A model generated the notes under the pieces. It was not told the origin of the DNA. It did no database searches and was given only the letters and a program-made list of their open reading frames with translations. Positions 24,271 through 42,125 of a DNA stretch of 44,348 nucleotides are shown piece after piece. This DNA is from a virus (lineage: Duplodnaviria; Heunggongvirae; Uroviricota; Caudoviricetes). The position numbers were made by a program, and so were the translations under genes. Location of the stretch: the IMG/VR virus record IMGVR_UViG_2740892273_000003. One strand, written 5' to 3'. The number at the start of each line of letters is the position of its first letter. The stretch's first letter is position 1.

Positions 24271-24294
24271 CAAAACCTCCTGACAAAGATACCG

Positions 24295-24310
24295 TGCGAC
24301 CACGGTCGCA
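24295..24310. repeat. sopC-like centromere palindrome copy 1 (TGCGACCACGGTCGCA)
   Basis: 16-bp inverted repeat with 7-bp arms TGCGACC/GGTCGCA; one of five copies in the window. Confidence 0.6.
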
Positions 24311-24514
24311 CGCTCCTGAATACATGCCCTGTTTCTTCCACCCTCGCACAGGACTGGCGAGCATGAGGGACAAACCCGCGAATCATTAGCGCGGTAAAAA
24401 CCCGGTGTGCATCGTTTTTGATTATTTCCGCACACTCGCGCAGAGGAGTTCCCCGTCGGGCTACGGTCATGGTTAATGCGGAAATACGGCGACGATGCAG
24501 CGCGGTATTTAATG

Positions 24515-24530
24515 TGCGACCACGGTCGCA
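24515..24530. repeat. sopC-like centromere palindrome copy 2 (TGCGACCACGGTCGCA)
   Basis: Identical 18-mer GTGCGACCACGGTCGCAC to copy 1, about 220 bp away in the same orientation. Confidence 0.6.
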
Positions 24531-24550
24531 CACGAGAAACAAAGAGATTT

Positions 24551-26232: not shown

Positions 26233-27354
26233 TTACTCAAATAACTTTTTCACTTCATCAACTGTCTGAAGATAACGTTCACCCTCAATCTCAATACCGA
26301 TTGCCTGACGACCTAACTTCAGCGCGGCTTTAATAGTAGAGCCTGATCCCATAAAGAAATCGGCAACGATATCTCCGGGGCGGGAACTACTTTTTATAAT
26401 ATGTTCCATCATCGCTGCAGGTTTTTCACATGGGTGCTTGCCAGGATAATATTGCACAGGAGGAAACTCCCATACATCGGTATAAGGTACATCAGCAGTA
26501 ACATGAAATGGGCGGCGCAAATTTTCATACTGAGCCTTCAAATCATCATACTGCTTCTTTACTTCCTCATAACGCAATTTCAGATCGCTATAACGCTTTT
26601 CATGTTCTGAATAATCAACATTAAAAGGATATGGACACGGGACACCGAGTGAATCTGCCTTCCTGCGAAATAATTCGCATAGTTTATTAAAATCACTTAA
26701 TGATGGAAGCCGCCACTGCGAATAAGAAAACCAGTGCGAACACATCTGCTTTCCTGTTGCTGAATTAATGTCTGCGGCTGATATATCTAACTGACGGCGA
26801 GCCAGCGAAAAAGCATCAATTAGTGGAGAAAAAATATTTTTTCTTAAATCTGCACATTTTGAAGCATAACCTGACTGACCTTTAGCATAACCTGACGCGC
26901 CGTAATGCTCTGCAAATAATATTCTTTCAGTGGCAGGAAAATAAGCCCTTAAACTTTCTTTATGACAACCGCGCCACATACCACTGGGTTTAGCCCAAAT
27001 GATATGGTTCAGAACATTGAAACGGTCGCGAGTTAATAATTCAATTTTTGACGCAAGGCGAGAGCCGGTAAACATATACAGGCTGCCATTAGGGGCCAAT
27101 ATCCGCCAAAATTCTGCCAAAAATTCATCAATCCACCCCAAAAAGTCAGCATCGCTATCCCACTGGTTATCCCATGCGTTAGCCTTTACGCCGAAGTATG
27201 GTGGGTCTGTTGCAATCAAATTGACCGAGTTATCAGGGATGGTTTTGATAAATTGCAGAGAATCTGCGCAAACGAGTTGCGCGCCATGAATATTAGTGGT
27301 TTTGAACATAGCTATTATTTTTTTGCCTGGGTAAGCTAACCCGGCGATGCGCAT
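26233..27354 (-). CDS. Orphan DNA amino-methyltransferase (N6-adenine or N4-cytosine); true start may be the internal MFKTT
   Basis: DPPY motif near the N-terminus (LIATDPPYFG) and FxGxG AdoMet motif near the C-terminus (DFFMGSGST); no adjacent restriction endonuclease gene. Confidence 0.75.
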   Translation of the reverse strand: MRIAGLAYPGKKIIAMFKTTNIHGAQLVCADSLQFIKTIPDNSVNLIATDPPYFGVKANAWDNQWDSDADFLGWIDEFLAEFWRILAPNGSLYMFTGSRLASKIELLTRDRFNVLNHIIWAKPSGMWRGCHKESLRAYFPATERILFAEHYGASGYAKGQSGYASKCADLRKNIFSPLIDAFSLARRQLDISAADINSATGKQMCSHWFSYSQWRLPSLSDFNKLCELFRRKADSLGVPCPYPFNVDYSEHEKRYSDLKLRYEEVKKQYDDLKAQYENLRRPFHVTADVPYTDVWEFPPVQYYPGKHPCEKPAAMMEHIIKSSSRPGDIVADFFMGSGSTIKAALKLGRQAIGIEIEGERYLQTVDEVKKLFE

Positions 27355-27467: not shown

Positions 27468-27505
27468 TTGTTGGCTGTTGGGTACAAAAAACCCAACTTA
27501 ACAAA

Positions 27506-27534
27506 ACAATAACTAAAAACCGTAATTTTGCCAA
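27506..27534 (-). promoter_or_regulatory. Candidate late promoter (PR'-like): TTGGCA, 17-bp spacer, TATTGT
   Basis: Sigma70-like hexamers on the minus strand ~30 nt upstream of the hairpin/terminator series; a centromere-like palindrome sits just upstream. Confidence 0.45.
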
Positions 27535-27554
27535 GCTTTTTCGTTTTTGTGCTG

Positions 27555-27570
27555 TGCGACCGTGGTCGCA
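27555..27570. repeat. sopC-like centromere palindrome copy 3 (TGCGACCGTGGTCGCA, opposite orientation)
   Basis: Same arms as copies 1 and 2 with the central dinucleotide GT instead of AC; extended palindrome CTGTGCGACCGTGGTCGCACAG. Confidence 0.6.
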
Positions 27571-27576
27571 CAGTTT

Positions 27577-27804
27577 TTAGAAAGTTGCCTGCTTATATTC
27601 ATCGGTCAAAGAATATCGACCAGACCCGCTACGCTTTGCAACCCCAAAACAGATCATCTGTTCGATGATAAATTCAACGGCAGCTTGACTCAAAAAACAG
27701 GCTTCGCTTAACTCTTTCAGGGAAATGCGTGGGTATCCACGCATAACACATTCCACACTCAGGGCCGCTTCAGTCATATTTCCACGAATTTCATTAATAT
27801 TCAT
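27577..27804 (-). CDS. Hypothetical small protein (75 aa), possible winged-helix DNA-binding protein
   Basis: ORF with a helix-turn-helix-like segment ISLKELSEACFLSQAAVEFI; immediately upstream of the candidate late promoter. Confidence 0.45.
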   Translation of the reverse strand: MNINEIRGNMTEAALSVECVMRGYPRISLKELSEACFLSQAAVEFIIEQMICFGVAKRSGSGRYSLTDEYKQATF

Positions 27805-27817
27805 AACGCCTCTCTAA

Positions 27818-28057
27818 TCAATCTTGAAACTGGAAATCAACATCAGCCATAAAGCGGTTCAACTCAGCCAGTTTTGGCCCCATAGTCCCAACTAAGCGAC
27901 CAGCCAGTCGGTCTGCCAGGTTGGTACTGTTGAAACCATATTCCTTTTCGAAACGTTCAACCTTCTGCCACAACTCATACAGTTCGTTAGCTATCTCCGC
28001 AACGTCGTCGCGCATTTTTTCGTTACCTTGATAATTCATAATATCCTCCAAATTCAT
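27818..28057 (-). CDS. Hypothetical acidic small protein (79 aa)
   Basis: ORF in an operon with the 75-aa gene; divergent from the toxin-antitoxin pair. Confidence 0.45.
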   Translation of the reverse strand: MNLEDIMNYQGNEKMRDDVAEIANELYELWQKVERFEKEYGFNSTNLADRLAGRLVGTMGPKLAELNRFMADVDFQFQD

Positions 28058-28204
28058 ATAGTTAGTGGGTTATTGCCCCTCAATGACACGAACTGTAACT
28101 CTGCCAAACGAACACATCCAGTGTTATTTTTCACTTTTTAGTGAAATTTTTAATTTGCGCTTTTTTCTTGTTTTGGTGTATTTTATGGCTATGGAGGCTA
28201 TAAT

Positions 28205-28516
28205 ATGTTTAACGTGATAACCCACCCTGCAGCACTGGATGAACTGCTTGAACTACCAGATGATTTGCGAGGTCGCATGACCAGATTAATTGAGCGACTG
28301 GAGAAGGAAGGCAACAAACTGAAGATGCCCCATAGCCGTGTAATAGGTGGAGGGCTTTTTGAACTACGAGTAGGGGATAAAAACATCGCAAGAACGCTGT
28401 ACGCCTACGCGACTGGTAACGAAATTTATCTATTGCATGCATTTGTAAAAAAGACACAGAAAACACCGGTGAAGGCTATTGAAATCGCCAGAACTCGCCT
28501 GAAGGAGATGAACTGA
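28205..28516 (+). CDS. Type II toxin, RelE/HigB superfamily (N15 gp49-like, 103 aa)
   Basis: Small basic protein resembling gp49-like/HigB toxins; GGAGG RBS 7 nt upstream; encoded upstream of an HTH protein with ATGA start/stop overlap; opposite strand to flanking phage genes. Confidence 0.65.
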   Translation: MFNVITHPAALDELLELPDDLRGRMTRLIERLEKEGNKLKMPHSRVIGGGLFELRVGDKNIARTLYAYATGNEIYLLHAFVKKTQKTPVKAIEIARTRLKEMN

Positions 28517-28803
28517 TGAAAGCGAAAGGCATCCCGTTTAACGAAGTAAAAGAAAAACTTCTCAACACTCCAGAAGCCATCAAAGGATATGAAGAGGCCG
28601 ATAAAGAGCTGGAGATGGTCGAAATGTTATACGAAATGAGGGAAAGAGCAGGTTTAACGAAGTCAGCTCTGGCTGAACGAATGGGATTGCGCCCGTCAGC
28701 TATCAGCCGCCTGGAAAGCAATCCTTTAGGGGCAAGCATGAAAACTTTATCAAAATATGCCCAAGCATGCGGTGCAACGATTAATATTAATGCCGTCTAT
28801 TGA
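28516..28803 (+). CDS. HTH (XRE-family) antitoxin, HigA-like (95 aa)
   Basis: Helix-turn-helix segment LTKSALAERMGLRPSAISRLE; translationally coupled to the toxin gene. Confidence 0.65.
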   Translation: MKAKGIPFNEVKEKLLNTPEAIKGYEEADKELEMVEMLYEMRERAGLTKSALAERMGLRPSAISRLESNPLGASMKTLSKYAQACGATININAVY

Positions 28804-28846
28804 TTAGACCCTTTTCGCTACCCCGTCCAGAAGGGCGGGGTGTGTA

Positions 28847-29065
28847 TCAATGATGCAAACACTCAACAGCAATAACTTGTTGGCAATTCTGAGCAATCTC
28901 CCGCGACATACTAACAAGTCGTGAAATCTCGCCAAGATGCAAGCTGGCTTCTGGAGAAGCCAGAGCAACGCTAACCAGATCCAAAACGGCGTCGATGTCT
29001 TTTAGGTTTGATCCGAGTTCTTCAAGAGTTGATACAGGTGCTTCAGTCATTGAATCTAATACCAT
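28847..29065 (-). CDS. Small protein (67-72 aa) downstream of a LexA box; candidate SOS-inducible antirepressor
   Basis: ORF with alternative ATGs at ~29065 and ~29050; a LexA-box-like sequence lies ~25 bp upstream. Confidence 0.45.
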   Translation of the reverse strand: MVLDSMTEAPVSTLEELGSNLKDIDAVLDLVSVALASPEASLHLGEISRLVSMSREIAQNCQQVIAVECLHH

Positions 29066-29087
29066 TTAATTAAAAAAGGTTATTTGA

Positions 29088-29107
29088 TACTGTATAAAAT
29101 TACAGGG
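29088..29107 (-). promoter_or_regulatory. LexA box (SOS operator) overlapping a candidate promoter
   Basis: TACTGTATAAAATTACAGGG fits CTGT-N8-ACAG with an AT-rich centre; on the minus strand it overlaps TTGAGT-17-TACAGT promoter-like hexamers. Confidence 0.6.
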
Positions 29108-29134
29108 TAAAACTCAAATTTTATAGCCAACTTT

Positions 29135-29289
29135 CAATGGATTAACTGGTTAAATATCTTTGTAGTCCGATACTTATGTTCCCTTCCTACGCCTCGCCCA
29201 ACCACTTTCAAAAGCCCATCACCACCATCAGAAAAGCTCTTTTCGCTCCGTTTTCGTATCATTTCAAAAAGCAATGCCTTTTTGTCCAT
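29135..29289 (-). CDS. Unannotated small ORF (about 50 aa) with a strong Shine-Dalgarno sequence
   Basis: ATG at ~29289 preceded by GGAGGG at 5-nt spacing; translation MDKKALLFEMIRKRSEKSFSDGGDGLLKVVGRGVGREHKYRTTKIFNQLIH; below the track's 60-aa cutoff. Confidence 0.3.
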
Positions 29290-29298
29290 TTATCCCTC

Positions 29299-29312
29299 CG
29301 TGACCAGTCACA
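29299..29312. repeat. Palindrome CCGTGACCAGTCAC (GTGAC-N2-GTCAC), copy 1 of 2
   Basis: Shares the 14-bp core GTGACTGGTCACGG (reverse complement) with the palindrome at 40633-40652. Confidence 0.5.
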
Positions 29313-29634
29313 CTTTGAGCGCAAGTTTCAGCCTCGTGGTTGTAAGGTGGCATGAGCCTTCACCATCAAAAATGCATTCTGAAACAGGCATTTTTTGACC
29401 ACATCGCGGACAAGTAGTAGATAGCTGTTTCTGCAACTCCTTATAGTTTTTCCTGATCAGCAGTCCGATGACTTCGTTCTCTGAATATGGAACTCGCCCT
29501 GGTCTACGCAATACACAAATTTCCCCCAACATACGTAACTCGTCAGGTTCCAGAATCCAGTCACGTCTTGATGTTCCTTCCTTCTTCAACCGTTCCCTGC
29601 GTCTTCTTTGCCGTTCTGCCGGTGTCAGCGCCAT
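29308..29634 (-). CDS. Hypothetical protein (108 aa) with basic N-terminus and CxxC motif
   Basis: ORF; Arg-rich N-terminus MALTPAERQRRRRERLKKEG and CPRCG motif. Confidence 0.5.
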   Translation of the reverse strand: MALTPAERQRRRRERLKKEGTSRRDWILEPDELRMLGEICVLRRPGRVPYSENEVIGLLIRKNYKELQKQLSTTCPRCGQKMPVSECIFDGEGSCHLTTTRLKLALKV

Positions 29635-29649
29635 AAATCCTCCTGAAAA

Positions 29650-30180
29650 TTACTTAACCCAATTAACTACACCGCCAGCGGCCACAACCGCCCTTTCACA
29701 GTCACGCTCATATCTCAAAGGTTGAAATACACCATCAATAAAATATTTATCTCCACCAAACGCTGCAGGAAGTGAAACAGAAAACTGAATATGACCATCC
29801 GGAGTTACCGGAGAGTTGCCAGCCAGTCTACGCAACACAGCCTTAACGGCCTCAATACGGTCATCATCAACTTTTTCTACAATATTGGAATTTAAATACT
29901 TCGAAGCCTTGCTATGCCAATCGCTGGTTTTAGGGTCTTGTCCATCCATCAAACGCCAAGCTTCAGCGATTAACTCATAGCCAGTGACAGTGGCTTCCTG
30001 CGCATCACCAATAAGTCGTGTAATCTCTCTTTCAAGCCGACCGCCTAGCTCTGTTTTAGTGCAATGTTCTGACCAATCGCCAGCCTCAAGCAGCGCGAGA
30101 ATGCTTAAAATATCGTCCAATAGAACGGTAGTATTATCGACTTCCTTCTGAAACTCACCGGCTACTGATTTATGCATCAT
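29650..30180 (-). CDS. Hypothetical protein (176 aa)
   Basis: ORF in the early-right operon; contains a PVTPDGHIQFSVSLP segment related to the PVTPDGWISCSERMP segment of the neighbouring DUF551-like protein. Confidence 0.5.
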   Translation of the reverse strand: MMHKSVAGEFQKEVDNTTVLLDDILSILALLEAGDWSEHCTKTELGGRLEREITRLIGDAQEATVTGYELIAEAWRLMDGQDPKTSDWHSKASKYLNSNIVEKVDDDRIEAVKAVLRRLAGNSPVTPDGHIQFSVSLPAAFGGDKYFIDGVFQPLRYERDCERAVVAAGGVVNWVK

Positions 30181-32672: not shown

Positions 32673-32973
32673 TTTCTTGTGCGACCACGGTCGCACCCTC
32701 TCTGATTTCCAAGTAACGCTTAATCCAAAGATTTTCTATATGCTTATTACCTGGCTGATTTGATAAATACCAATCGGCAATTACAGACTGCTTATTACTA
32801 TCTGGTCGTGTCCTGTAACCACAAGTTGGACACCAGATAACATATTCATTTCTTACCCCCGAATACCTTAATTCTGGCTTCGACGGTTTCCTGAACATAA
32901 CTTGTTTACAAAGGCAGAATGGCACTTCCTGCCCGATGGCGTTTGATGATTTCACTGCGCTTCTCCGCCGCAT
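32653..32973 (-). CDS. Hypothetical protein with zinc-ribbon-like motifs (106 aa as given)
   Basis: CxC...CxxC spacing (FCLCK ... WCPTCGY); start uncertain (internal MFRKP also possible). Confidence 0.4.
   Translation of the reverse strand: MRRRSAVKSSNAIGQEVPFCLCKQVMFRKPSKPELRYSGVRNEYVIWCPTCGYRTRPDSNKQSVIADWYLSNQPGNKHIENLWIKRYLEIREGATVVAQENENNAI
32680..32695. repeat. sopC-like centromere palindrome copy 4 (TGCGACCACGGTCGCA)
   Basis: Same 16-bp palindrome in the early-right operon, at the junction of two small ORFs. Confidence 0.6.
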
Positions 32974-33616
32974 TTAATAATGCAGTTCGATTTAAGCTCA
33001 GACATCGCGACTTAATTAAAAGCCAGCGTTCTTTATAATCTTGTCTCCAGCTATCAATAGATATATTCAGTAGAAAACTCAGATGCCTGTCCTGTTCTCT
33101 CTCATCAACTGCCTCAGCACACGTAAGTTCTGACTTAACCTGCTGTGCCGCGTAATAAATCAATTTTCTCATGGCTTTTTTCGTGGAGGCCTTCATTTTT
33201 TTAAACCCGCCACCCGAATGCGCAACCAGAAAATCAAGCCATAACCACTGACAAACAATCACATCATTGTTGTAGTCAGGCTTGCATCCGTAGCAATAAT
33301 AAAGCCAGGCTGATTCCTCGTTATTCAACTGACCAATAGCCCTGCGCCAGCTGGCGCTCTGAAAATCAATATCAGTGAGCAACATTGATGATTGTTTAAA
33401 TGTTTTGCCCTGGTGGAATCTAACCGGCTCAGCAGGAACAGACACTTCGTATGAGTTATCATCACCTACACTGATTGACCGGACTGGTTTATTGTTAAAG
33501 CGTCCTGATCTGCCTAGACGCATCTGCTCAAGCTGGACCTCTAGGATGCCACGCTGGCGATAATGAATATCAGCCAATGCCGTGGAGACGCAGCTGCGTA
33601 TATACTCAAGCTCCAC
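32906..33616 (-). CDS. Hypothetical protein (236 aa) translationally coupled to cro; possible late regulator, function not established
   Basis: ORF overlapping the cro 3' end; contains a CxxC pair (YYCYGC); no family recognised by eye. Confidence 0.45.
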   Translation of the reverse strand: MELEYIRSCVSTALADIHYRQRGILEVQLEQMRLGRSGRFNNKPVRSISVGDDNSYEVSVPAEPVRFHQGKTFKQSSMLLTDIDFQSASWRRAIGQLNNEESAWLYYCYGCKPDYNNDVIVCQWLWLDFLVAHSGGGFKKMKASTKKAMRKLIYYAAQQVKSELTCAEAVDEREQDRHLSFLLNISIDSWRQDYKERWLLIKSRCLSLNRTALLNAAEKRSEIIKRHRAGSAILPL

Positions 33617-33854
33617 GCTTACGGCTCTCCTTAATCGACTGCTTTACCCGCCGAGTTGTAAAGTCACTCTTCAGCTTGTAAGCAGTACGAACTTCAATAT
33701 CACTTTGCCGCAATGAAGGAATCTCTCCAGCGGTTAACCATTGGTAAACAGCACCGGGTGTTACACCTACCCCAGCCGCTGCTTTTTCTACACTGCCAAA
33801 GTGGCGAATAAGTTCTTCTGGTTTCATGCGGTTATTATAAGCAATAAATCGCAT
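33606..33854 (-). CDS. cro: Cro-like DNA-binding protein (82 aa)
   Basis: Small HTH protein (AAGVGVTPGAVYQWL) transcribed divergently from the repressor gene across an operator-containing 64-bp spacer. Confidence 0.7.
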   Translation of the reverse strand: MRFIAYNNRMKPEELIRHFGSVEKAAAGVGVTPGAVYQWLTAGEIPSLRQSDIEVRTAYKLKSDFTTRRVKQSIKESRKRGA

Positions 33855-33918: not shown

Positions 33919-34515
33919 ATGAAAACACGAGGCGAACGACTGAAAGCACGCCGTTTAGAGATGAAGCTGACGTTGCGAGAAGTTGCTGAGGCTGTCGATA
34001 TCTCTATTGCAGGCGTCCAAAACTTAGAACGTGGCGACGTAATGCCGTCACTGGAGATAGGTATTGCCCTGGCTAAATGCTTACGCAAGCCAGTGCATTG
34101 GGTGCTGTATGGGACAGAATATGACCCTGATCGCATTCCTGTTATTGGCACAACTGAAAGTGGACCTGATGAAGAGTGGAAGCCAGGACAGGTTCCAAAT
34201 ACTGAGCGATTCCTGCCATTCATCAGCCAGCGCAATACTGTTTATGCGTTAACTATCAGCAATCTGGCGCAGGGAAACTATCAGCCTGGCGATTTTCTCC
34301 TGGTCGATTCTGCGCTGGAACTGGTCCCCGGCGAGGATGTTCTGGTTCGTGATACTGCAGGAAATATCACCATCCAGCGCCTGGCCCGTTTTGATGATGA
34401 AAATTACTATCTGGACGGAACAAATTCACAACGCGCTATCTTCAGGAAAAGCGATCTTGAATTTGTTCACCAAATAGTCGGAACGATCAAATCATTCATG
34501 GTTGAGGGTAGATGA
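33919..34515 (+). CDS. cB: Prophage repressor, cB/cI-type (HTH_XRE N-terminal domain plus LexA/S24-like C-terminal domain that appears to lack the catalytic Lys)
   Basis: N-terminal HTH LREVAEAVDISIAGVQNLERG; the C-terminal domain aligns by eye to the cI/LexA peptidase fold (PGDFLLVD) but has QRLAR where the catalytic Lys is expected. Confidence 0.75.
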   Translation: MKTRGERLKARRLEMKLTLREVAEAVDISIAGVQNLERGDVMPSLEIGIALAKCLRKPVHWVLYGTEYDPDRIPVIGTTESGPDEEWKPGQVPNTERFLPFISQRNTVYALTISNLAQGNYQPGDFLLVDSALELVPGEDVLVRDTAGNITIQRLARFDDENYYLDGTNSQRAIFRKSDLEFVHQIVGTIKSFMVEGR

Positions 34516-34760: not shown

Positions 34761-37700
34761 ATGACATTAAACGATTTCTATGCGGATCGCTTTGGCAGCG
34801 ATCCGTTCTCGCTAATTGAAGCAGCACGGGATGAACTAACCGAGCTGGCACAGATGGCTGGTATCAACTGGTCTGCCTGTTCCGACAACATCCAACTCAA
34901 CCCTCGCGGGGGTGTTGAGCGTTACTCTTCATACAATAAAACATCCCCAGAAGCTCTCGAAAAGAGCCTCAAAGGACGCGTAGAAATTTACTCCCGGCTG
35001 GAACACAGCAAAGGGATTGATTACCCGTTCATTAACTTCGTCCATAAAGGCAGCGATGCTGGCTCATGGAGCGGTTTCTCCTTCCTGTTTTCTGAATATC
35101 GCCGTGAGCAACAACGGAATAATGCGACCGTGGTCGCACAACCGGAAGAAGAACGGGCAAGAATAGAACGTCAGGCCGAAGCACGTCGTCGCCGTGAAGA
35201 ACAAAAACGAATTAATGACCTGAAAAACAACCAAATGGACCATGAACGTTTGCTGGGATGGCTGGCATTCCACAGTGCTTGGGAACATGCTCCTGCAGAA
35301 GACGGCTCATGGCCATATGCGATTAAAAAAGGTATTCGTGACGTTTTTAATTCGTGTGATGTGCGTCGCGTGACCAGTCACGACAGCGCAAAATGGAGCA
35401 GGGGGCCAACCACGTATATGGCTATCCCTCTGGCTCACCTGGACGGTCGTTACGATGGTCGTATTGTTGGTTGGCAGCGAATCGACAAACAAGGTGGAAA
35501 ATACCAGACCAGCGCCGTAACCAGCGGCGATTTCGTCGGTGCCTGCTTTGTTATCGGTGAGCTGAAAGGGGCGCAAAACATCGCTGTTACAGAAGGTTTT
35601 GCTACTGGTGCATCCATCTGGCTTGCCACGAAAAAAGATAAACGCTTTGACGCTGTGGTTGTCGCTGTATCCGCTAACAACATGGTTCATGTTGTGGAAC
35701 AACTGGTAAACATGTACCCGGCGGCAAAAATCACCTGCGCACTGGATAATGACCGGAAATCAGCTACAGAAGGAAAAGGGAATACCGGCCTGCGGACTGG
35801 CTATGAAATCTTATCGAAATTCAACGATGTCCGCTGCGTCTATCCAACTTTTGAAGACGATCCGCAAATGGAGTGCAGTGACTTCAACGACCTGCACAAA
35901 CTACGTGGACTTCGTGAAACAGCACGTCAACTGTTTGCAACTGCAAACCGCCTGAAAACTGGCACTGATTTGCTATCTCTGACGCTCAACCGCCTGAAGA
36001 CAATTAAGCGGGATAACCGTCGTACTTTTGCCAAAGAGCTGCTGAGAGCAGTGGATATTGGCATGCTAACCTGTCCGGTTCCTAACAGTCCGTCAGACTT
36101 ATTTAACATGTTCTGCATCGTCCTGCGTGAAATTGGGCTGGAAAATATCTATCGCGCTACGGTAAAAGACCACATTGCCCGTCGCCTGAATAAAAAGTGC
36201 CGTATTGCCCAGGCTCCGCGCTCATTCAGCGAACGAATAACTGATCCCAATAAACGTCCTCAACATATCACCTATAAGCGTTTTGAAACTTCGGTAATGA
36301 CCGATGACGTCCTGAAGTATGTGCAATCACTACAGGGGATAGTCATCGTTCGTGCTGGTATGGGTTCCGGCAAATCTACTGGATTGTTACGACCTTTAAT
36401 GCATAGCTCAGAACGTGGTATCTCTGTTGCTCACCGTGTTTCCCTTATTGGTGGCCTGTGGGAAATGATGACAGAAGGAAAAGGTGTAAAAGCCGATATC
36501 CTGCACTATCAGGACCCTGGCTATCAGGAAATGGCTCCATACGCCAGTAAACTGACCATCTGCATAAACTCGATTGTTAAAAACTGCTGGCAACCATTGA
36601 TGCGCCAGCACGACTATTTTGGCTTTGACGAGGCCACGCAAGGGCTACGTGCCGTTCTTTCCGGTCGGGCTATGGAAAACCCGGTGGCTGTATTCAATAC
36701 GTTAATTGACGCGCTGGCCAGAACGGAACAACACCCAATAATGGTGGATGCTGATGCGAACGATCTGCTGGTTGACCTGGCTGAACTGGCTATGAAACGC
36801 CGTGAAGAACTAGGTTTACCGGCATGGCTGCAGATCCACGTAATTGAATTACCTGTTGATGTTCGCAACCGCGAAACAGGTGAGCCAATCCGGGTTTTTT
36901 ATACAGAAAAAGATCGCATTATGACCGAGGTGGTGAAAGCTGTATCGAATGGCGAAAAAATCATGTTGGCCACCGACAGCTCCACCTTTGCAGAAGATGT
37001 GACCGCCACCCTGAGAATGCATTTTCCTGGTAAGAAATTTCTGTGTGTAAACCAGAAAAACAAACCAGAGCCAGAAGTTGAAGCATTTACCAATCAACCG
37101 AAAAAGATGGTCAAAAAATACGACGGCCTGATTTATAGCCCGTCTATTTCATCCGGTGTGTCGATTGAGCAAAAACATTTTGACCGTCATTTCGGCATGT
37201 TCTGTGGTGAAGTTGTACCCAGCGACGCAGTGCAAATGCTACGCCGCGACCGTACAGCAAAAGAATTTATTATCGGCTTTGATAAAGCTCGCGCAAAACG
37301 TGAAACTGACCCGCAAAAAATAGAACGAGCATTCGCCCAGGCATTGCTTGCTACCGCAGGCATGAACGGTGAACTGACGGATGTCGTTTTCGATGGCGAC
37401 CGTATATCAATGGGGGTGGCCAATACCGACTTTACCAGGATGAAAATTAAAGCAGCCGCAATTGAAGCGTCTGCGCGTAACGACTACGCCAGCAACATGA
37501 TCTGCATCATGCACAGCGACGGTTATAAGGTATCGCCGCTGGCCACCGATTATGCTGCGAATGATATCGGTAAAGATCTGCGTAAAGAAGCGCGGGATAT
37601 TGTGTGGGAACAGACACTGGATCTGCATCTCAATACAGAAACTCCACAAGAATCAGAGCGTGAAGAACTGCTAAAAAAACGCGCGCTGACGCTTGAAGAA

Positions 37701-38756
37701 CAAGCAAAACTTGTCCGCTGGGATATTGAGAACGAACTGAAACTACCGGTTGAAGAAGGCACGCTGAAATTCTATTTCGATGGTGCTCGAGACAAAGTTC
37801 GCCGCTATGAAACAATGCTTTTAGATGAGGTAACAGCTCGTCGTTACGACCGGGAAGAAGCAGCCATCAATTTTACCTACGCATACCGTCAGGCGGGACA
37901 GTGGCAATATTTTGTAGTGACCGCGATGACTCGCGAGCAGGCTGATGATGTCTTTAAAACTAAATTCCCTGGAATAATCGACTACAAGGTAAAAGCTACT
38001 CCTACTGTTGAAGTCGGGGCGCGCGGTTTCTATGCGCTTAAATCAGCAACTCTCCGGCAGTACTTTATCGACTGCGGTATCAACCCTGAGACTATGACCG
38101 GCGAGGCGACTCAGGAGCGTCTCAAATTCGCTCGAGATAACCTCATGACAGCCGAACGCCGTGACCTGTTGAATAACGTTCTGCACATTGGTGGTTTTAT
38201 GACGCCAAAAGGGAAGCCTAAAGTGCCGGAAGCGTTGTTTAAAAACATTTGCGACTCTCTTGGCCTTAAAACAGGTAAACGTCGCGGCAGAGACGGCGAT
38301 AAGCGTCCAACCTTGCGTTTTGTTGAGCCTGAATCAGCGGCATTTATGCTGGATATTCTTGTTCAGCGTCAGAAAGATGGCCTAACCCTAAAAACGCGTA
38401 AAGCCGAGAAGACAGCCATCGAAATGGATCGCGATTTGGATCTCAATATATATATGGATGATAAAACGCGATCCACAAACGAGCAGGTTCAAAACGCCCC
38501 TCATTCAGTAATTTCTGAGGCTTTGGCCGTATTGCCGGTGGCTGTTCCTGAGTCCTGGGCGATGAGTGCGCTTTCCGGTGAGGAGCTGGCCACTATGTCA
38601 TCATGGTCATCAGCCAGCATAGCTATGACGTTTGCATCTCTGTATCTCACAGAGTTCATGGATCACTTGTCCAGCAATGAATTGCGGCGGTTACGAGAAT
38701 ACATTACCGGGAATAGCTCATGCAGCTACGAAGAGCAGGGCGCTTTCTATGGGTAA
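34761..38756 (+). CDS. repA: Replication protein RepA, multidomain primase-helicase (1331 aa, N15 RepA-like)
   Basis: Toprim-like primase motifs (NIAVTEGFATGASI; CALDNDRK), Walker A (GMGSGKST) and Walker B (YFGFDEAT) in the central region; size close to the ~1.3 kaa N15 RepA as recalled. Confidence 0.8.
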   Translation: MTLNDFYADRFGSDPFSLIEAARDELTELAQMAGINWSACSDNIQLNPRGGVERYSSYNKTSPEALEKSLKGRVEIYSRLEHSKGIDYPFINFVHKGSDAGSWSGFSFLFSEYRREQQRNNATVVAQPEEERARIERQAEARRRREEQKRINDLKNNQMDHERLLGWLAFHSAWEHAPAEDGSWPYAIKKGIRDVFNSCDVRRVTSHDSAKWSRGPTTYMAIPLAHLDGRYDGRIVGWQRIDKQGGKYQTSAVTSGDFVGACFVIGELKGAQNIAVTEGFATGASIWLATKKDKRFDAVVVAVSANNMVHVVEQLVNMYPAAKITCALDNDRKSATEGKGNTGLRTGYEILSKFNDVRCVYPTFEDDPQMECSDFNDLHKLRGLRETARQLFATANRLKTGTDLLSLTLNRLKTIKRDNRRTFAKELLRAVDIGMLTCPVPNSPSDLFNMFCIVLREIGLENIYRATVKDHIARRLNKKCRIAQAPRSFSERITDPNKRPQHITYKRFETSVMTDDVLKYVQSLQGIVIVRAGMGSGKSTGLLRPLMHSSERGISVAHRVSLIGGLWEMMTEGKGVKADILHYQDPGYQEMAPYASKLTICINSIVKNCWQPLMRQHDYFGFDEATQGLRAVLSGRAMENPVAVFNTLIDALARTEQHPIMVDADANDLLVDLAELAMKRREELGLPAWLQIHVIELPVDVRNRETGEPIRVFYTEKDRIMTEVVKAVSNGEKIMLATDSSTFAEDVTATLRMHFPGKKFLCVNQKNKPEPEVEAFTNQPKKMVKKYDGLIYSPSISSGVSIEQKHFDRHFGMFCGEVVPSDAVQMLRRDRTAKEFIIGFDKARAKRETDPQKIERAFAQALLATAGMNGELTDVVFDGDRISMGVANTDFTRMKIKAAAIEASARNDYASNMICIMHSDGYKVSPLATDYAANDIGKDLRKEARDIVWEQTLDLHLNTETPQESEREELLKKRALTLEEQAKLVRWDIENELKLPVEEGTLKFYFDGARDKVRRYETMLLDEVTARRYDREEAAINFTYAYRQAGQWQYFVVTAMTREQADDVFKTKFPGIIDYKVKATPTVEVGARGFYALKSATLRQYFIDCGINPETMTGEATQERLKFARDNLMTAERRDLLNNVLHIGGFMTPKGKPKVPEALFKNICDSLGLKTGKRRGRDGDKRPTLRFVEPESAAFMLDILVQRQKDGLTLKTRKAEKTAIEMDRDLDLNIYMDDKTRSTNEQVQNAPHSVISEALAVLPVAVPESWAMSALSGEELATMSSWSSASIAMTFASLYLTEFMDHLSSNELRRLREYITGNSSCSYEEQGAFYG
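35123..35138. repeat. sopC-like centromere palindrome copy 5 (TGCGACCGTGGTCGCA), inside repA
   Basis: Same palindrome embedded in the repA coding sequence (encodes NATVVAQ). Confidence 0.6.
38424..38476. other. Candidate replication origin inside the repA 3' region
   Basis: Imperfect inverted repeats GGATCGCGATTT / AAACGCGATCC containing GATC sites, flanking an ATATATATAT tract. Confidence 0.35.
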
Positions 38757-40699: not shown

Positions 40700-40786
40700 A
40701 GTCACCTCGCTGCGGTAAATCCCGCAGTCGGGACTTCGCAATCCTGGCAAAACGAAGCGCACAACACGCGCCAGCGTGTTTTTTTG
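40700..40786 (+). ncRNA. Candidate small regulatory RNA (P1 c4 / N15 CA-like) preceding icd-ant
   Basis: Promoter-like TTGACG (~40673) with a weak -10; hairpin CTGCGG-taaatc-CCGCAG; intrinsic terminator ACACGC-gcca-GCGTGT then TTTTTTT at ~40764-40786; lies directly upstream of an icd-like gene. Confidence 0.4.
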
Positions 40787-40951
40787 TGTGTATAGACCTG
40801 CGCATATCCGAATTATGGTGGCTCAGGTGGGGCTGACTTCGGTCGGGCCGGTTTCTTCGTTTACCGGTATTGCGAACCCCGCCTGGGCTACCACCAATAA
40901 AGAGATTCGCAACTCTGGTGGTAGCACGACCAATAAAACGGAGTGCATACC

Positions 40952-41116: not shown

Positions 41117-41346
41117 ATCAGGTAAAAATGAACACTGTTGGCCTGCTGGAATCGTTGGATGAACGTCTGGCTCAGGTCTATGCGCTCGTATCATCAGCCC
41201 ATCGGACAGTCTCCAGTTGTGAGGCGTCGATTTACCTCTCAGAGGCTGGAAAACTTCTGCAGATTGCGTGTGAGTTAACGCATGAAGCACAGGGATATTC
41301 TGCGTCTCTCTCGTCGCACTTGCTGCGCGATAAGGAGGCTGAATGA
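41113..41346 (+). CDS. Hypothetical protein (77 aa) in the icd-ant operon
   Basis: ATGA overlaps with both the upstream and downstream genes. Confidence 0.5.
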   Translation: MNQVKMNTVGLLESLDERLAQVYALVSSAHRTVSSCEASIYLSEAGKLLQIACELTHEAQGYSASLSSHLLRDKEAE

Positions 41347-42125
41347 GCGCGTTAGCAGTCTTTTCCTTTCAGGAAGAGCATCAGGTTCGTGTAGTGATGA
41401 TTAACGGTGAGCCGTGGTTTGTGGCTAAGGATGTATGTGATGCTTTAAGACTCGTTAATTCCCGGAAGGCGCTAATGTCTCTGGATGAGGATGAAAAGGG
41501 TGTAACTTTAAGTTACACCCCTGGCGGAGAGCAAAAGCTAAATATTATTTCAGAGTCAGGTCTATACACCCTGATCCTCCGCTGCCGTGACGCGGTGAAG
41601 CAAGGCACAACAGCTTGGCGGTTTCGCAAATGGGTAACGAACGAAGTCTTGCCCTCTATTCGCAAAAATGGAGAGTACGTTTACATCGAGCCTGAGCCAA
41701 TGCGAGCAGCGGAGCCGTTGAACTGGAGGCAGAAAGAGTATCTGCGAGGGCTGATTAACGATATAGCACAAAGTTTTCAGTACCGAAATGCCTGGATTAG
41801 CGGTGTATGGTTAGCTTTGCGTCGGGCGTGTCGTAATCCATCCCCGAACCCCATAACGGTTGATGATTTGCCAGCAATTACGGCAGAACTGCGCCGGATT
41901 TTGACGGCTGCTGAGTCGGCATTGGGGAACATGCGCACGTATGAACGAGAGTTGTTGCGTGATGTTGTTCGTGGGGGTAGGCGGAGTATGTCGTGTGGTG
42001 ATTTACCCATCACCGATATTAACTCTGATCTGGAAAAGGCGTTACCCGCGCATTTTGAACTGGCAGTTCAAAAACTTGAGCAGTTATCCGCGCAGCTAAA
42101 GCCAGCAGAAATCACCAATAAATAG
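41343..42125 (+). CDS. ant: Antirepressor with Bro-N domain (260 aa)
   Basis: N-terminal FSFQEEHQVRVVMINGEPWFVAKDVCDALRL...SESGLYTLILR...KWVTNEVLPSIRKNG matches the Bro-N domain pattern. Confidence 0.7.
   Translation: MSALAVFSFQEEHQVRVVMINGEPWFVAKDVCDALRLVNSRKALMSLDEDEKGVTLSYTPGGEQKLNIISESGLYTLILRCRDAVKQGTTAWRFRKWVTNEVLPSIRKNGEYVYIEPEPMRAAEPLNWRQKEYLRGLINDIAQSFQYRNAWISGVWLALRRACRNPSPNPITVDDLPAITAELRRILTAAESALGNMRTYERELLRDVVRGGRRSMSCGDLPITDINSDLEKALPAHFELAVQKLEQLSAQLKPAEITNK

Follow-up and report, generated by a model that had tools for sequence, protein, structure and literature searches.

A probable Gp49/Tad-Ata (HigBA-like) addiction cassette, orthologous to N15 gp49-gp48, inverted within the early operon of an N15/phiKO2-type linear phage-plasmid

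The locus studied here is a pair of overlapping genes at positions 28205-28803 of a 44,348-nt stretch of viral DNA (Caudoviricetes; IMG/VR record IMGVR_UViG_2740892273_000003), the whole of which is called the window. All coordinates are those of the window. The two genes, their ribosome-binding sites and their neighbours are as follows:

27577-27804 and 27818-28057, minus strand: left-hand neighbour genes
28193-28197, plus strand: Shine-Dalgarno sequence of the toxin gene, GGAGG, 7 nt 5' of the ATG and kept in most aligned relatives
28205-28516, plus strand: toxin gene, 103 aa, ATG start, a Gp49/Tad/HigB-type RelE-fold protein and predicted mRNA endonuclease
28502-28507, plus strand: Shine-Dalgarno sequence of the antitoxin gene, AAGGAG, 8 nt 5' of the ATG and within the 3' end of the toxin gene
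28516-28803, plus strand: antitoxin gene, 95 aa, ATG start, an XRE-type helix-turn-helix (HTH) protein with an N-terminal extension
28847-29065, 29308-29634, 29650-30180 and onward, minus strand: right-hand neighbour genes

The original prediction for this DNA was of a toxin gene overlapped by the gene for an HTH antitoxin. Both reading frames are present where they had been placed and overlap by 1 nt, the junction reading TGATG, so that the last base of the toxin stop codon TGA (28514-28516) is also the first base of the antitoxin start codon ATG (28516-28518). Both genes are intact, and with this overlap and the internal Shine-Dalgarno sequence they have the layout of a translationally coupled pair. 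The pair had also been described as lying on the strand opposite to all of its neighbours, and the nearest genes on either side are indeed all on the minus strand, making the pair the only inverted unit within a long co-directional operon. Both the GC skew and the AT skew change sign locally across the two genes, as is expected because the pair is a strand-inverted coding island. No third co-oriented ORF was found beside the pair, either here or in N15 and phiKO2, and in the window the converging gene lies 43 nt past the antitoxin gene.

The element that carries the pair is an N15/phiKO2-type linear phage-plasmid, that is, a plasmid-prophage. The DNA of the window is similar to that of N15-like plasmids and phiKO2, five sopC-like palindromes are dispersed along it, and it encodes the following:

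32906-33616, minus strand: antiterminator Q
33606-33854, minus strand: Cro
33919-34515: CB-like HTH/S24 repressor
34761-38756: RepA-like primase-helicase, 1331 aa
42297-44198, minus strand: protelomerase with all four TelK domains (TelK/TelN protelomerase domains)

The toxin-antitoxin pair lies downstream of cro and Q within a run of minus-strand genes. The label 'early-right region', under which the pair was originally filed, is apt, since the pair sits inside the operon that begins with cro and Q. Six plasmids from E. coli and E. fergusonii match the 2 kb around it at 99.1-99.9% identity, and many others do so at about 95%. In all of these plasmids RefSeq gives the first product as 'type II toxin-antitoxin system RelE/ParE family toxin' and the second as 'helix-turn-helix transcriptional regulator'. 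No Rfam family was found in or beside the module.

The product of the first gene matched the Pfam Gp49 profile (PF05973) over profile positions 1-90 of 90, with a score of 101.6 bits (cut-off 23.9) and an E value of 2.5e-29. This is the profile match that had been foreseen for the first ORF, and it is far beyond chance. The Gp49 family takes its name from gp49 of N15. An NCBIfam profile search of the toxin gave no match. When solved structures were searched with the toxin sequence, S. pneumoniae HigB (6AF3_A) was matched with an E value of 5.5e-5, and M. tuberculosis HigB1 was also matched.

The toxin was modelled with AlphaFold from an alignment of 39 homologues (pLDDT 88.5, pTM 0.82). The modelled protein consists of a four-strand sheet plus helices, including a C-terminal helix at residues 89-102. 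In a Foldseek search, the top match of the model was ribosome-bound M. tuberculosis HigB1 (7NBU), with a TM score of 0.79 and 27% identity, and further matches were to 7AWK (the HigB1 crystal form), to S. pneumoniae HigB, and then to YoeB and RelE, with ParE weaker. A RelE/HigB (RelE/BECR) fold is thus predicted with confidence, together with the long C-terminal helix that has been described as typical of Gp49-like toxins (PMC9098466). The earlier identification of the first product as a gp49/HigB-like toxin is supported by the full-length PF05973 match, by orthology to N15 gp49 and by this HigB fold model.

Residues of the toxin were paired with catalytic residues of characterised toxins by HMMER alignment to the HigB structures in combination with published mutagenesis (PMC9098466, PMC7984235), which gave these correspondences:

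E53: E66 of HigB1 and E66 of S. pneumoniae HigB
R55: R68 of HigB1 and R68 of S. pneumoniae HigB
F80: F93 of HigB1 and F90 of S. pneumoniae HigB
K82: K95 of HigB1 and K92 of S. pneumoniae HigB
Q85: Q98 of HigB1
K86: K99 of HigB1

In addition, R63 is likely to correspond to R77 of HigB1 and R73 of S. pneumoniae HigB, a pairing that requires a shift of the loop register by 1-2 residues relative to the HMMER alignment. In the family alignment of 39 sequences, E53, R55, R63, F80 and K82 are invariant. With the residues at the catalytic positions conserved and the fold as modelled, the toxin looks catalytically competent. PF05973 toxins are described in a review as ribosome-dependent mRNases with a toxin-first gene order (PMC11980606), and some toxins of the Gp49 family, such as M. 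tuberculosis HigB2 and HigB3, are non-toxic (PMC9098466).

The product of the second gene matched Pfam HTH_3 at residues 38-88 with an E value of 1.6e-12, again far beyond chance, its XRE-type HTH being placed at residues 36-89, in agreement with the HTH_3/XRE match anticipated for this ORF. Against NCBIfam, only sub-threshold matches to antitoxin HTH domains of the HipB, MqsA and Y4mF type were obtained, and the name given to the gene by NCBI is 'helix-turn-helix transcriptional regulator' only. A search of solved structures with the antitoxin sequence returned HipB, HigA2 and S. pneumoniae HigA (6AF3_B, E value 0.008). The two products of the pair therefore match the two chains of one and the same complex, S. 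pneumoniae HigBA, the toxin matching chain 6AF3_A and the antitoxin chain 6AF3_B.

Judged by protein sequence and gene order, the pair is the orthologue of gp49-gp48 of Escherichia phage N15 (NC_001901, genes 49 and 48), and Klebsiella phage phiKO2 has the equivalent pair. Identity of the toxin is 92% to N15 gp49 and 91% to phiKO2 Gp49, and that of the antitoxin is 86% to N15 gp48 and 83% to phiKO2 gp48; a handful of conservative substitutions set the proteins apart from those of N15. The lengths of the N15 proteins (103 and 95 aa) and their one-base stop/start overlap are those of the window pair, whereas in phiKO2 the toxin has 104 aa and the overlap is 4 nt. The N15 and phiKO2 pairs also have the gp47-like and gp50 genes as their neighbours, and they likewise run against the direction of the operon around them. 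N15, phiKO2, Klebsiella telomere phages and 35 plasmids all keep the pair intact in the same position, with protein identities of 88-100%. In PY54-type relatives a tblastn search gave no match.

The region 5' of the toxin gene contains the following candidate control elements:

28129-28146: perfect dyad TTTCACT-tttt-AGTGAAA, centred about 67.5 nt 5' of the toxin ATG, putative operator
28155-28184, plus strand: candidate sigma-70 promoter read by eye, with TTGCGC at 28155-28160, a spacer of 16 or 18 nt, and TGTATT or TATTTT within 28177-28184
28162-28184: degenerate second copy of the dyad region (direct repeat D1), overlapping the -10 region of the candidate promoter

The dyad sits upstream of the -35 sequence, not on it. 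At the promoter-like site, N15 has TTGTGT-17-TATATT and the chromosomal homologues have TTGAGT-17-TATATT or TTGAGT-17-TATTAT; when N15, phiKO2, Xenorhabdus and Yersinia are aligned, the site reads TTGnGT-17-TAT(A/T)(T/A)T. Transcription from the window site is predicted to start near 28189-28191. The candidate promoter is weaker here than that of N15, its spacer being 1 nt shorter and its -10 sequence being TGTATT in place of TATATT, an A-to-G change. Because the promoter is weaker here than in N15, expression of this copy of the module is only assumed.

The original prediction had the module driven from a divergent promoter. What stands of this is a conserved promoter-like site upstream of the toxin gene, which is weak in this copy and falls below the threshold of the consensus promoter scan; the scan gave no match at a sensible position, and its number of matches equalled the chance expectation. 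The sole plus-strand match of the scan, at 28035-28062, was rejected as a chance match; it overlaps the start of gp50 and is not conserved in N15. On the minus strand, inspection of the shared intergenic region by eye yielded only poor, non-conserved candidates for a gp50 promoter, so that a divergent promoter pair cannot be asserted. The same intergenic region contains a 21-nt inverted repeat (28038-28058 and 28184-28204), and the two divergent ribosome-binding sites, one GGAGG...ATG per strand, account for it. In the 2007 study of N15 by Dziewit and co-workers, the system reportedly stabilised heterologous replicons, its toxins were said to be bactericidal, and two promoters were said to be present; an internal antitoxin promoter in the toxin gene is reported as well. 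For such an internal antitoxin promoter within the window's toxin gene, no convincing match was found by eye and none in the scan.

The dyad has 7-bp arms, and no second perfect copy occurs in the window. It is kept together with the promoter-like region in N15 and phiKO2, the 147-nt intergenic region being well conserved, and in the N15 record it is annotated as a putative rho-independent terminator. About 90 nt 5' of the ATG can be aligned with the Xenorhabdus and Yersinia chromosomal copies. This shared segment holds both the promoter-like site and the dyad, and it is at the dyad that the similarity of the chromosomal copies to the window's upstream region starts. In eight of twelve relatives, with the Buttiauxella group left out, the best perfect dyad is centred 66.5-72.5 nt before the ATG, although its arms differ between lineages (CAC/GTG, CTC/GAG, CTAT/ATAG, TAAC/GTTA and AGTTA/TAACT).

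The changes in the dyad are symmetric. In an alignment of nine sequences centred on the dyad, 5/9 pairs changed on both sides and there was no one-sided (wobble) change, a degree of covariation that was reached in 0/500 shuffles and was far lower in slid-register controls; the register was picked from the best dyad of each sequence, and the sample is small and its sequences are related. The recognition helix of the antitoxin is PSAISR in lineages that have the same dyad, and QSGINS, PPAINR, PSTITQ or STGISR in lineages with other dyads. The comparison is suggestive of a dyad that changes in step with the antitoxin recognition helix, a correlation that is confounded by phylogeny. The dyad at 28129-28146 is thus probably the operator of the antitoxin and a part of the cassette; a possible alternative role is that of a small insulating hairpin. 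If it is a co-evolving operator, the dyad might also mark the 5' edge of a mobile cassette. Upstream of a chromosomal homologue from Buttiauxella that is 70% identical, a dyad of the N15 type was sought and is absent, a GGGAAA-n-TTTCCC dyad being located there about 40 nt before the ATG. The operator assignment is therefore limited to the closer relatives.

Downstream of the pair, the 43-nt gap between the antitoxin gene and the converging gp47-like gene contains a GC-rich 9-bp hairpin at 28820-28841 (ACCCCGTCC-agaa-GGGCGGGGT). A 59-nt segment with this hairpin has a folding energy of -22.4 kcal/mol (z -3.45) on the plus strand and -15.0 kcal/mol (z -1.06) on the minus strand. A terminator scan of 27500-29400 called no site, the hairpin being passed over because it has no U tract. 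The convergent terminator that had been proposed to close the module is supported in part only: a GC hairpin folds well on the plus strand, but it has no U tract and the scan was negative. It is possible that the hairpin acts as a weak or bidirectional terminator. In N15, by contrast, a canonical terminator follows gene 48 at the equivalent place (L002 3129-3161) in a gap of about 380 nt, and the sequence between is rearranged relative to the window.

The same gene arrangement was found outside the N15-like elements. In 15/15 related loci examined, the toxin gene comes first and an overlapping HTH gene second, with overlaps of 1 to 14 nt, and the pairing of toxin and HTH protein is found in distant phyla as well. 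Chromosomal copies were located at these sites:

Buttiauxella: between hydrogenlyase genes
Xenorhabdus: adjoining formate dehydrogenase genes
Yersinia: near mfd

The pair behaves as an autonomous cassette, present in unrelated genomic contexts.

The pair is very probably a type II, toxin-first ('reverse order') addiction cassette of the Gp49/Tad-Ata (HigBA-like) group, orthologous to N15 gp49-gp48. The key events in its proposed action are as follows. By analogy with characterised relatives, the toxin would enter the ribosomal A site and cleave translated mRNA, causing growth arrest, and the antitoxin would bind and neutralise the toxin. With its XRE HTH the antitoxin, alone or in complex, would also repress transcription of the operon; the most likely binding sites are the dyad at 28129-28146 and the degenerate repeat that covers the -10 sequence. 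Work on N15 suggests the consequence of losing the linear prophage, a low-copy element: in the daughter cell left without it, the labile antitoxin would decay and the stable toxin would halt growth. With growth arrested in prophage-free cells, the module would therefore back up the Sop partition system, keeping the plasmid-prophage in the population.

Of the roles considered for the module, plasmid addiction has the strongest support. The plasmid-prophage addiction put forward at the outset draws support from the N15 gp49-gp48 orthology, from the literature on that locus, in which it is handled as a functional toxin-first type II or plasmid-stabilising module (PMC2701414, PMC3581621, PMC5906591, PMC12977533), and from the plasmid-prophage nature of the host element. 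A homologous pair from SXT stabilised a test plasmid yet was dispensable for the maintenance of SXT itself (PMC2654960). Since the SXT pair is dispensable and some toxins of the family are non-toxic, stabilisation of the native element is not guaranteed.

The occurrence of the promoter-dyad-toxin-antitoxin unit at unrelated chromosomal sites in Xenorhabdus, Yersinia and Buttiauxella also fits a purely selfish mobile cassette of two genes, inserted between gp47 and gp50 in an N15-like ancestor and of no benefit to the phage-plasmid. Such an insertion would agree with the standing of the pair as the sole inverted unit of a long co-directional operon and with the lack of a tblastn match in the PY54-type relatives. 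However, intact retention at one position in N15, phiKO2, the Klebsiella telomere phages and the 35 plasmids argues for purifying selection, and mechanistically a selfish cassette is no different from an addiction module. We regard a cassette of no benefit to its carrier as unlikely.

Prophage toxin-antitoxin modules often defend their host, and the pair could mainly serve abortive infection or another anti-phage defence, in which an incoming phage would cause loss or displacement of the antitoxin, and the freed mRNase would stop translation while the phage cycle was still incomplete. There is a precedent within the family, the Gp49-family HigB of an E. coli TAC system, where abortive infection is triggered by the major tail protein of lambda (PMC11980606), and the toxin weakly and partially matches the C-terminal domain of NsnC in PADLOC (E value 2.6e-7, residues 43-95). 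The TAC precedent, however, has a SecB-like phage-sensing chaperone that is absent here. PADLOC-DB 2.0 gave no system-level match, the partial NsnC match being accompanied by generic HTH matches to several unrelated models, and in a survey of N15-like elements no complete defence system turned up (bioRxiv 10.1101/2025.09.12.675607). A mainly defensive role is accordingly rated as quite improbable.

Because the module is antisense within the cro-Q early operon, with a weakened promoter and a U-less terminator, it could also be proposed to work as a conditional roadblock or sensor. If this were true, convergent transcription of the early and toxin-antitoxin operons, or release of the toxin upon induction or superinfection, would couple prophage maintenance, lytic timing and the exclusion of other phages. 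We consider this proposal a speculative one and give it little credence. That the HTH protein is mainly a transcription regulator of the phage, with the upstream ORF an inactive toxin remnant, would suit the NCBI name of the second gene and its location in a regulatory, early region, but it is scarcely credible given the residues kept at the catalytic positions, the confidently predicted toxin fold, the tight toxin-antitoxin coupling maintained over many phyla, and the single dyad in the window, which gives no sign of other regulated targets.

On the preferred reading as an addiction cassette, an N15-like linear phage-plasmid carries the standard addiction module of its family intact, which is of little significance beyond correct annotation. 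An intact addiction module helps to account for the way in which such 'cryptic' elements are stably carried by Escherichia and Shigella isolates, and the regulatory anatomy, namely the dyad and the U-less hairpin, would be useful for the design of reporter or stability assays.

Among known systems, classical HigBA (Rts1, E. coli K-12; PF05015 / PF09907) shares with the window pair the toxin-first order, the RelE fold and the HTH antitoxin, and it is autoregulated at palindromes. It belongs, however, to other Pfam families, with no significant sequence match to the pair and with much weaker structural matches (5YCL and 6KML, E value about 0.05). In S. pneumoniae HigBA (6AF3/6AF4), the counterparts of R55, F80 and K82 of the toxin are the active-site residues R68, F90 and K92; identity is only about 25%, and in vitro activity was reported to be possibly ribosome-independent (PMC7984235). 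In structure, the toxin model is most similar to HigB1 of HigB1-HigA1 from the M. tuberculosis TAC system (Rv1955/Rv1956; 7NBU, 7AWK), a ribosomal A-site mRNase with a long C-terminal helix (PMC9098466). The antitoxin of that system needs a SecB-like chaperone, whereas the window module is without such a third gene.

[quoted passage not shown] Tad-Ata shares with the window pair the toxin-first order and the XRE-HTH antitoxin, and it stabilises plasmids (PMC2701414, PMC5906591). Its host is an alphaproteobacterium and its carrier a circular plasmid, whereas the window pair is on a phage.

The closest known system is N15 gp49-gp48 itself, and the module is therefore already known, as a Tad-Ata / HigBA-like pair that is annotated likewise in public records. 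The earlier note on this DNA did not recognise the pair as a copy of the family's characterised founding member. According to its title, the paper of Dziewit et al. (2007, J Bacteriol 189:1983) concerns a toxin-antitoxin stabilising system encoded by N15. Makarova et al. described Tad-Ata, placed N15 gp49 in the family of its toxin and showed the relationship to RelE (PMC2701414). Sala et al. cited the 'chaperone-less gp49-gp48 locus of the E. coli N15 prophage' as a relative of M. tuberculosis HigBA (PMC3581621), Armalyte et al. counted Dziewit 2007 among the validated toxin-first modules with a GP49 domain (PMC5906591), and a phage-plasmid paper of 2026 cites Dziewit 2007 for phage-plasmid addiction modules (PMC12977533). 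To this known module the present comparison adds two points: a dyad of the cassette, annotated as a terminator in N15, that shows symmetric covariation, and, in this lineage, a weakened promoter together with a U-less hairpin in place of the N15 terminator.

The dyad upstream of the toxin gene (TTTCACT-tttt-AGTGAAA, window 28129–28146) is already marked in the GenBank record of N15 (L002), where it lies 5′ of gene 49 and is labelled 'putative rho-independent terminator':

L002 2424–2444 (equivalent to window 28126–28146), N15 dyad, GenBank annotation

Comparison across contexts showed that the dyad moves together with the toxin–antitoxin cassette and covaries symmetrically, and operator therefore seems a more fitting label for it. 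The chromosomal toxin homologues of Buttiauxella and Dryocola (loci L004, L013, L014, L016, L017 and L018; 67–71% identical) carry a different dyad, GGGAAA-n-TTTCCC, which sits about 40 nt 5′ of the toxin ATG across the promoter region, with TGACA-type repeats farther upstream. This second dyad suggests that operator specificity may have switched within the toxin–antitoxin family.

A perfect TATAAT hexamer is present between the Shine-Dalgarno sequence and the ATG of the toxin (window 28199–28204). It is probably incidental, since it has no −35 partner and is replaced by TATACT in N15 and TATGCT in phiKO2.

At the other end of the cassette, the gap between genes 48 and 47 is about 380 nt in N15 (L002 3100–3480) but only 43 nt in the window (28804–28846). 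The N15 gap contains a canonical terminator with a 15-bp stem and a T run, whereas the window gap contains a different hairpin, in which the GGCGGGG arm is reused and the T run is absent. The difference is a local rearrangement inside the lineage.

The palindrome GTGCGACC-NN-GGTCGCAC occurs five times in the window, against a chance expectation of 0.02:

24294–24311, palindrome
24514–24531, palindrome
27554–27571, palindrome
32679–32696, palindrome
35122–35139, palindrome

A phiKO2 site annotated 'putative plasmid partitioning site' matches the copy at 27554, and the five palindromes are the sopC-type centromere sites that lie scattered through N15-like prophages. The toxin–antitoxin module lies about 650 nt from one such site.

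Other features of the window were as follows:

40709–40784, + strand, isrK (Rfam, gathering-score match, 52.8 bits)
40811–40898, + strand, C4 antisense RNA (Rfam, gathering-score match, 82.3 bits)
41343–42125, + strand, Bro-N domain ORF
880–1078, − strand, IS009 RNA (Rfam, full-length match, 218 bits)
26233–27354, − strand, N6/N4 DNA methyltransferase, 373 aa

The isrK and C4 matches lie just 5′ of the Bro-N ORF, and the linear prophage thus appears to carry an antirepressor immunity locus of the P1 c4/ant type. The IS009 match falls inside an ORF (840–1421) that lies in the structural block, at its tail-fibre end. The methyltransferase, at 373 aa, compares with about 285 aa for the N15 gene 52 product and about 354 aa in phiKO2, so that its length is variable among N15-like elements.
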